From Myxococcota bacterium (GTDB lineage: Bacteria; Myxococcota_A; Polyangia; Polyangiales; Houyiibacteriaceae), in contig JANQQS010000087.1 in NCBI GenBank assembly GCA_028284955.1, positions 36,314 through 100,313 on the forward strand: a stretch of 64,000 nt of DNA. The letters are read 5' to 3'. Every line of letters begins with the position of its first letter. Within the stretch, counting starts at the first letter, position 1. Of the stretch, positions 23,681 to 23,973 are shown piece by piece. The notes under the pieces were generated by a model that was not told the origin of the DNA, ran no database searches, and saw only the letters and a list, made by a program, of their open reading frames with translations. The position numbers were made by a program, and so were the translations under genes.

Positions 23681-23694
<14 letters not shown>

Positions 23695-23806
23695 TGGTCA
23701 AGGGCGACTCCCTTCGGGGTCGCCCTTTTTCCGTTGGGCCGGATTTCGTTATTCATTGTGCGTTCGCTGACGCGAACGCGCGACCCCCGCTGTGTTGTTG
23801 GTTGCG
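23681..23806 (+). repeat. tRNA-3'-end/trailer unit, copy 1 (126 bp)
   Basis: Starts with the last 14 nt of the tRNA (ggcccccgcaacca), contains the terminator, an inverted degenerate tRNA 3' end (ccgttgggccggattt), hairpin gcgttcgc-tgac-gcgaacgc, and ends in tggttgcg. Confidence 0.9.
23702..23730 (+). terminator. rho-independent terminator of tRNA-fMet
   Basis: gggcgactcc-cttc-ggggtcgccc hairpin followed by TTTTT. Confidence 0.85.
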
Positions 23807-23844
23807 GGAGCCGGATTTGAACCGACGAACCTTCAGGTTATGAG
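23799..23844 (-). pseudogene. inverted partial tRNA-Met copy (anticodon loop to CCA, 46 nt)
   Basis: Reverse complement reads ctcataacctgaaggttcgtcggttcaaatccggctcccgcaacca, matching the 3' half of tRNA-fMet with few changes; no 5' half. Confidence 0.8.
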
Positions 23845-23847
23845 TCT

Positions 23848-23973
23848 GTTCAACTCGGGCCCCCGCAACCATGGTCAAGGGCGGTCCCATTCGGGTCCGC
23901 CCTTTTTCCGTATGGCCGGATTTCGATTTTTTTGTGCATCCGCTGACGCGGATGCGCGGCCCCCGCTGGTGTT
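23848..23973 (+). repeat. tRNA-3'-end/trailer unit, copy 2 (126 bp, tandem, period 167 bp)
   Basis: ggcccccgcaaccatggtcaagggcggtcccattcgggtccgcccttttt... collinear with copy 1; both hairpins retained through paired substitutions. Confidence 0.9.

Follow-up and report, generated by a model that had tools for sequence, protein, structure and literature searches.

The DNA analysed here is a 64,000-nt stretch of contig JANQQS010000087.1 (positions 36,314 to 100,313, forward strand; assembly GCA_028284955.1) from a Myxococcota bacterium, referred to below as the window and numbered from its first letter, and our subject is the repeat-rich DNA that directly follows its initiator tRNA gene. This gene, tRNA-Met(CAT) at 23618-23694 on the forward strand, is the sole tRNA gene that ARAGORN reports in the window. 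It encodes its own CCA, scores 61.4 bits against the Rfam tRNA model and, as read from its sequence, has the C1/A72 mismatch and the GGG/CCC anticodon stem that mark an initiator. Downstream of it come, in order, a 104-nt trailer, tRNA positions 33-77 copied in inverted orientation, positions 50-77 copied in direct orientation, a second 104-nt trailer and the remnant of a second inverted copy. An earlier inspection of the letters (the sequence-only reading) had taken this arrangement for scars of repeated integration and excision at tRNA-fMet. We consider it reasonably probable that the region is instead the 3' trailer of the initiator tRNA, made up of two copies of a structured module ancestral to a Sandaracinaceae-like myxobacterial group.

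Two repeat units behind the initiator tRNA gene

Both units in the window contain a direct copy of the tRNA 3' end, here denoted A(+), and inverted copies denoted A'(-) and A''(-), interspersed with hairpins:

23618-23694, forward strand: initiator tRNA-Met(CAT) gene, whose final 28 nt (23667-23694) serve as A(+) in unit 1
23700-23732, forward strand: hairpin 1 of unit 1, an intrinsic terminator with a T5 tract (terminator scan and fold)
23731-23748, forward strand: A'(-) of unit 1, in which the tRNA T-loop, T-stem and acceptor strand recur inverted and degenerate (CCGTTGGGCCGGATTTCG)
23758-23781, forward strand: hairpin 2 of unit 1, GTGCGTTCGC-TGAC-GCGAACGCGC (fold; aligns with hairpin 2 of the family described below)
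23799-23844, reverse strand: inverted half-tRNA (tRNA positions 33-77), 46 nt, holding the position of the family A''(-)
23844-23871, forward strand: A(+) of unit 2, repeating tRNA positions 50-77 with CCA in direct orientation (inverted-pair match)
23877-23909, forward strand: hairpin 1 of unit 2, terminator-like (hairpin 23877-23904), then T5 (inverted pair, fold and terminator scan)
23908-23925, forward strand: A'(-) of unit 2, CCGTATGGCCGGATTTCG (inverted-pair match and family alignment)
23934-23957, forward strand: hairpin 2 of unit 2, GTGCATCCGC-TGAC-GCGGATGCGC (fold)
23976-23993, reverse strand: A''(-) remnant of unit 2, with TGGTTGCG exact and about 14 of 18 positions matching the inverted copy of unit 1

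Unit 1 thus spans 23667-23843 and unit 2 extends from 23844 to about 23993. Repeat search and pairwise alignment paired 23667-23753 with 23844-23930, with more in-register blocks out to about 23993, at an offset of 176-177 nt; Tandem Repeats Finder did not report the 177-nt repeat. The sequence-only reading was right that the last 14 nt of the tRNA recur together with about 112 nt of trailer, and the two units are 87% identical across the 126 nt that it considered (23681-23806), but its 167-bp period has to be replaced by one of 177 nt and its second copy shifted by 10 nt. The partner it had assigned to 23681-23806, namely 23848-23973, matches at only 34 of 126 positions, whereas the true partner, 23858-23983, matches at 111 of 128 in a gapped alignment. 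Likewise, the direct repeat of the tRNA end that it described does exist but is longer than 14 nt, covering 28 nt (23667-23694 versus 23844-23871, with 25 of 28 positions identical), and the units are not 126-nt blocks standing head to tail, as the 177-nt period takes in the inverted half-tRNA between the blocks.

Each unit opens with the directly copied tRNA 3' end, continues with a terminator hairpin, a short inverted T-arm/acceptor copy and a second hairpin, and ends with the acceptor end copied in inverted orientation. Hairpin 1 of unit 1 (23700-23727) has 12 pairs, eight of them G-C, and a 4-nt CTTC loop, and is followed by TTTTT; in both units hairpin 1 combines a G+C-rich hairpin with a T tract on the transcribed strand, as expected of intrinsic terminators. 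That an inverted copy of the tRNA 3' end follows this hairpin in each unit, as previously noticed, was borne out by a perfect 11-nt match (AAATCCGGCCC / GGGCCGGATTT) on both occasions, the one in A'(-) of unit 1 being 100% complementary to 23675-23685. The 46-nt inverted half-tRNA at 23799-23844 also proved real, with two substitutions and one indel (one inserted base) relative to the tRNA, and TGGTTGCG, described earlier as present at both unit ends, does close both units (23799-23806 and 23976-23983). With up to three mismatches allowed, the 25-nt tRNA end occurs three times in the window against 0.00 expected by shuffling, so the copies cannot be ascribed to chance.

Segments 23799-23826 and 23844-23871 together make a 28-bp palindrome, and 23799-23871, when folded alone, gives a 28-bp hairpin ending in ACCA (-40.7 kcal/mol, z -6.1). 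The lowest-energy fold of the region pairs 23650-23694, the 3' half of the tRNA, with the inverted copy (-210 kcal/mol, z -11.8).

The trailer family in related genomes

Related loci were reached via homologues of the RluB-type pseudouridine synthase encoded upstream of the tRNA, whose gene served to locate the syntenic positions, and by one pattern scan of genome contigs. RluB homologues in metagenome-assembled genomes of Polyangiales and Sandaracinaceae are 63-70% identical to the window protein, the nearest apart from an exact match being 69% identical, which places the window among Polyangiales/Sandaracinaceae-like Myxococcota. Homologous units were found directly 3' of tRNA-fMet in five related Sandaracinaceae genomes, in 1 to at least 7 tandem copies:

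L004 (also L021 and L023), MFD02416.bin.1.293: two tRNA-fMet genes, each followed by 3-4 units of 134-139 nt and, farther out, by degenerate ones
L007 (also L032), contig Ga0310345_10000494: 2 units
L014 and L019, Sandaracinaceae CA_2019_TPBS_160: an array of 7 or more 129-nt units, at which the assembly breaks
L025, SGMAG-31: 1 unit
L034, LLY-WYZ-13_1: two tandem tRNA-fMet genes, then 1 unit

The arrays of L004 adjoin core genes. In L034 (5241-5443), two tRNA-fMet genes of identical type stand 55 nt apart and a trailer unit follows only the second. Directly after the array in L019 (636-856) lies a different tandem repeat of 41-43 nt, lower in G+C and iteron-like (TATCCCGGGACGATTTTAAAA...), and the open reading frames (ORFs) beyond it had no Pfam match.

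The order of elements in the family is A(+), hairpin 1, A'(-), hairpin 2, hairpin 3 and A''(-), where A(+) is the acceptor 3' strand of the tRNA, GGCCCCCGCAA(G), A'(-) is CTTCGC..GGCCGGATTTCG, an inverted copy of tRNA positions 57-74, hairpin 3 is present in the units of the relatives, and A''(-) is CTGCGGCGGC, a short and degenerate inverted acceptor strand. GGCCGGATTTCG is constant in 12 of the 13 aligned units, with the degenerate second unit of L007 as the sole exception. The long inverted copy in the window aligns opposite the conserved CTGCGGCGGC of the relatives, and in the model alignment its start (UGCGGGAGC) stands opposite the family uGCGGcGgC; the inverted half-tRNA thus appears to be a longer form of a segment shared by all members.

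A covariance model, R1, built from an alignment (A2) of non-window units only, matched the window at 23681-23811 (50.5 bits, E 1e-8) and at 23858-23960 (37.1 bits, E 9e-6), and found nothing beyond these two units over the 64 kb. The trailer unit had no family match in Rfam. In the genome collection, scanned with a pattern requiring CCCCCGCAA upstream, units occurred only in arrays at tRNA-fMet; a scan of the metagenome collection returned a single contig, that of L007, and two scans of viral contigs found no copy of the unit.

To compare trailers with control DNA, identity was counted as matches per longer length and z-scores were obtained from shuffles. In the first trailer unit, once its tRNA-derived start is set aside, the five relatives share 75-85% identity (z 11-19), compared with the background level of 44-57% (z <4) for control DNA 45-120 nt upstream of the tRNA. 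For reference, rluB coding DNA is 80-83% identical among three of the five relatives compared, and the RluB proteins of the relatives are 70-80% identical. Conservation extends to the non-terminator parts of the first unit (GGCCGGATTTCG, hairpins 2 and 3, and CCCTGCGGCGGC), which are conserved as much as the terminator.

Base pairing is also maintained. In the model-guided alignment 96.7% of cells pair, and 11 pairs have changed on both sides, compared to 4.4 in shuffled alignments and 1-4 with partners slid, a count to be read with the caveat that the alignment had been fitted to the covariance model. These two-sided changes are concentrated in hairpin 1 (7/9 pairs) and hairpin 2 (3/7 pairs). 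Comparison of the two window units alone yields three fully compensated pairs, two in hairpin 2 (G-C to A-T and T-A to C-G) and one in hairpin 1, which also has one broken pair. Changes from C-G to U-G are frequent, and fit pairing in RNA of the tRNA-sense strand. As for the closing helix, in which A(+) pairs with A'(-) or A''(-), 93% of cells pair and the window has a 28-bp hairpin, with both strands invariant. A compensated G-C to U-A change was seen in hairpin 2 of L034.

The immediate flanks of the array in the window contain the following:

22773-23561, forward strand: RluB-type pseudouridine synthase gene (Pfam S4 and PseudoU_synth_2), the conserved upstream neighbour
23578-23605, forward strand: putative tRNA promoter (TTGACA, 16-nt spacer, TAAGTT), read from the sequence
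24039-24311, forward strand: N-terminal fragment of an IS66-family TnpC (Pfam LZ_Tnp_IS66, E 3e-10), context outside the module

The TTGACA and TAAGTT elements likely form the tRNA promoter. At the equivalent position the relatives have TTGACA or TTGACG with TATACT or TATAGT; a consensus promoter scan did not flag 23578-23605. A conserved ORF of 83-86 aa overlaps the RluB stop codon in most of L004, L005, L007, L034, L035 and L036; it had no Pfam match and is absent in the window and in L001, where the tRNA comes directly after RluB. On the other side, a tandem duplication of 21 nt (23981-24023) lies between unit 2 and the IS66 TnpC fragment that abuts the array. This fragment is cut off at both ends, leaving about 90 residues of the N-terminus, and shares 51% identity with the IS66 TnpC of L035. 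Directly past the stop codon of its frame lies an ORF for a ParE-family toxin (24344-24691, reverse strand; Pfam E 4.5e-5). Farther downstream are two large neighbouring FG-GAP repeat proteins of 702 and 673 aa (34204-38451, reverse strand), an ORF of the helix-turn-helix (HTH)/MqsA-like type (40305-40991), an AbiEi antitoxin and AbiEii toxin pair (45220-46700, forward strand) and assorted enzyme genes, hydrolases among them. The G+C content of the window drops from about 0.62 to 0.57-0.59 across its second half, which suggests accessory DNA.

Some loci of the clade have other DNA at the same place. L001 and L036 have another type of tRNA-fMet, with T-arm TAGG/CCTG, and show the tRNA, a single terminator and then a reverse-strand ORF; no trailer units follow tRNA-fMet in either. 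The ORF in L001 (4995-6100, reverse strand) contains Recombinase and Zn_ribbon_recom domains, and its counterpart in L036 lies at about 5360-5900. In L005, an MmeI-family restriction-modification gene and a RhuM-family gene (5222-8783) abut the tRNA-fMet 3' end, without a trailer unit, on a contig that stops short of the far junction of the island.

Origin of the array and rival explanations

If the region is a functional trailer, then in a read-through RNA the inverted copies would pair with a direct copy of the tRNA end, as judged from the modelled folds, to give one closed, tRNA-end-like domain per unit, analogous to that of E. coli RtT RNA, and tRNA-processing enzymes could release these closed domains, as for RtT. 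Copy number may shift by unequal homologous recombination between A(+) copies, while concerted evolution would keep the units alike. The 46-nt inverted half-tRNA may be a lineage-specific lengthening of the short A''(-), produced by an inverted duplication that pivoted on the near-palindrome AACC(C/T)GAAGGTT of the tRNA before or with the unit duplication. The palindrome in the window is centred on AACCTTCAGGTT, which derives from this near-palindrome and fits inverted duplication by fold-back or template switching. Moreover, the A''(-) copies read GGGAGCC in unit 1 and GCGAACG in unit 2 versus GGGGGCC in the tRNA, and since both share an A missing from the tRNA, the inverted copy predates or accompanied the unit duplication. 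A trailer RNA able to pair with the 3' strand of the tRNA had been suggested by the sequence-only reading, and this has turned out to be its best-supported part: the inverted copies can pair with the direct tRNA-end copies and occupy positions conserved across the family, and E. coli RtT closes likewise.

Several points weigh against a functional, ancestral trailer. Hairpin 1 in the window is a strong intrinsic terminator and should stop most tRNA transcripts ahead of any inverted copy, which argues for little read-through past it. In L014/L019 and L034, hairpin 1 lacks a U-tract, so that termination is not a conserved role. The closing helices, being invariant, have no covariation support and are neither backed nor contradicted by it, and in-register compensatory changes in the hairpins can arise unselected through templated correction in near-palindromes. 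By plain alignment, the similarity of the window units to the family is weak (51-58%, z 1-4), and the family is known from six genomes, none of the others close to the window.

The most serious rival, which we regard as unlikely although deserving of attention, is that only the first trailer, acting as a mere terminator, is functional, and that it was copied by slippage, unequal crossing-over and template switching, leaving the downstream unit and the inverted copies functionless as a neutral by-product. Such an origin is in keeping with distal units being more degenerate than proximal ones in every array, with arrays that vary in copy number and break assemblies, with a window terminator that should block transcription of everything downstream, and with the three differences in the 46-nt inverted copy, which fit neutral decay at half the 13-15% divergence between the units. 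It does not sit well with a first unit whose non-terminator parts are as conserved as the terminator, even though RluB proteins are only 70-80% identical, nor with the two genomes that keep hairpin 1 without its U-tract, nor with the same direct-plus-inverted design in E. coli RtT.

Integration scars, as proposed by the sequence-only reading, are considerably less probable. On this account the direct copies would be duplications of the attL/attR type left by integrase-bearing islands at an attachment (att) site, and the inverted copies recombinase-binding sites. The idea was reasonable beforehand given the islands that relatives have at tRNA-fMet, which is an integration site in the clade (L001, L005, L035 and L036): a large serine recombinase gene, identified by Pfam, abuts it in L001, with the same layout by sequence in L036, the MmeI restriction-modification island abuts it in L005, and in L035 it is followed by IS66 genes and an ORF read as integrase-like, which had no Pfam match. 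In the window, too, an IS66 fragment and genes for a ParE toxin and AbiEi/AbiEii come after the array. Nonetheless, every testable defining feature of an att scar fails there, and the evidence does not support this reading. Between the copies at 23667-23694 and 23844-23871 there is neither cargo nor any ORF, but 149 bp made up of hairpins and a piece of inverted tRNA, and no integrase was present among the window ORFs screened by Pfam on both sides of the array. Nor does the window contain a distal repeat, the one candidate (40659-40674) being a non-extending 14-nt match inside the HTH-protein ORF. Units built in the same way follow tRNA-fMet in five other genomes, in 1 to at least 7 copies and, in L004, beside core genes, an outcome that the sequence-only reading had itself named as refuting it; their interiors are conserved like coding DNA, and viral contigs yielded no copies. 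An empty site without a unit was not found, as the five relatives with the same tRNA type all carry units and L005, which has none, has an island abutting the tRNA.

Least probable is a miniature site-specific mobile element, i.e. a non-autonomous element or folded single-strand recombination site inserting repeatedly at the tRNA-fMet 3' end. In its favour, the unit ends are inverted repeats equal to the target sequence, the units nearest the tRNA are the best preserved, which serial insertion there would predict, and a single strand of the unit, whether DNA or RNA, folds into a long hairpin. Against it, the genome-collection scan, with its required upstream CCCCCGCAA, revealed no dispersal away from tRNA-fMet, target-site duplications are absent, neither a transposase nor a recombinase is linked to the units, integron attC core motifs do not fit by eye, and viral contigs contain no unit.

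A number of other candidates were rejected. A decayed inverted whole tRNA gene, to which a weak 25-bit match on the opposite strand might point, would require an interior resembling the reverse-complemented tRNA body, which it does not (p 0.23-0.98), and a decayed tandem tRNA gene plus spacer is at odds with the lack of direct similarity to tRNA positions 1-61 (p 0.29-0.99). A minus-strand pseudo-tRNA at 23802-23867 (21 bits, E 0.56) is below threshold and an effect of the palindrome, while a match to MIR1151 at 23665-23828 is spurious and reflects only the long hairpin. For a coding repeat like tpr, the periods of 127-139 and 176-177 nt are not uniformly multiples of 3, and no frame is consistently open.

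Comparison with RtT and other known systems

The closest counterpart to the myxobacterial trailer is E. coli RtT (RF00391), known from the distal repeats of tyrT/tyrV. In E. coli K-12, tyrV (L033; NC_000913 1286700-1287330) is followed by three tandem 178-nt RtT units of 95% identity, each of which begins with the tRNA-Tyr 3' end; all three match the Rfam RtT model, and rttR is annotated there. Every 178-nt unit includes a 22-nt inverted copy of the tRNA-Tyr T-arm that is 86% complementary and has a 10-nt perfect core, and in the Rfam consensus GgGaaGGA pairs with UCCuuCcC to close the element, with ccaCCACCA left free. The segment just after the inverted copy in L033 (CCAAGGTTCGAC) resembles a further direct T-arm-like piece. 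A single repeat unit in the tyrT operon reportedly encodes rttR (PMC3318445, which cites Bosl and Kersten 1991), whose role is described as still unclear (bioRxiv 10.1101/2024.07.17.603846), and parts of its structure are without covariation support (PMC8250186).

Like RtT, the myxobacterial units lie in tandem directly downstream of a tRNA gene and on its strand, begin with a stretch matching the 3' end of the tRNA they follow (12-28 nt in the myxobacterial family, against 19-21 nt in E. coli) and contain an inverted T-arm/acceptor copy that could pair with the direct copy and so close the element; their periods are also similar (178 nt in E. coli, 177 nt in the window and 127-139 nt in its relatives). 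The direct-plus-inverted design that had seemed puzzling in the sequence-only reading is, by this analogy, a feature of a known kind of tRNA trailer. Homology is another matter, for the RtT model had no match at E up to 1 in window positions 22000-26000 or in L019 1-900, whereas the same search returned the three E. coli copies. The tRNA also differs, being tRNA-Tyr in E. coli but the initiator in Myxococcota, the myxobacterial units hold an intrinsic-terminator-like hairpin and two separate inverted copies, and, unlike in E. coli, no tpr-like ORF is possible, since the periods of the family are not uniformly multiples of 3. Expression has been shown only for E. coli RtT. On these grounds, what we describe is a new RtT-like trailer family on the initiator tRNA, non-homologous to RtT and with a putative function.

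The resemblance to other systems is more limited. With the tRNA att sites of islands and prophages the units share a tRNA 3' end directly duplicated downstream, at a locus where relatives do have islands; they differ in that the window has neither cargo nor integrase, the relatives have no empty site, the unit interiors are conserved and inverted copies form part of the unit. Miniature inverted-repeat transposable elements (MITEs), repetitive extragenic palindromes (REPs) and bacterial interspersed mosaic elements (BIMEs) are likewise short and non-coding, bounded by inverted repeats and furnished with terminator-like hairpins; rtT-like sequences have been linked to BIMEs (PMC2965389). The myxobacterial units have the inverted ends but, in contrast to these elements, are confined to tRNA-fMet and not dispersed, with no extra R1 copy in the window and only tRNA-fMet arrays in the genome scan. 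As regards integron attC sites, the unit ends CCGCAAC and GTTGCGG, compared by eye, do not fit R'' RYYYAAC or R' GTTRRRY, nor was any IntI gene seen. The 3' external transcribed spacer (3'ETS) of leuZ, a sponge RNA, is a functional RNA derived from the trailer of a tRNA transcript, as the myxobacterial units may be; it differs in being one unrepeated spacer, in pairing with small RNAs and in lacking tRNA-end copies.

For annotation, the array is a reminder that nested tRNA-end repeats beside a tRNA gene are not automatically integration scars, and trailer arrays of this kind explain assembly breaks at tRNA-fMet in these genomes. One could go further, in what we offer as a conjecture that will probably prove wrong, and suppose that tandem trailer RNAs imitating the 3' end of their own tRNA are a recurrent, independently evolved class that would include RtT and this Myxococcota family, be released by tRNA-maturation enzymes and act on tRNA processing or on the sensing of uncharged tRNA. 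If true, the 45-bp complement to the initiator-tRNA 3' half in the window would let read-through transcripts trap their own tRNA. The myxobacterial family appears to be a second, unrelated case of the RtT design, in which tandem units start with a tRNA 3' end and close on an inverted copy, and its independent occurrence on an initiator tRNA, conserved as strongly as a housekeeping gene, argues that the RtT-type design itself is selected. For RtT, known for decades and of unclear function, the new family provides a comparative handle on what such trailers do.

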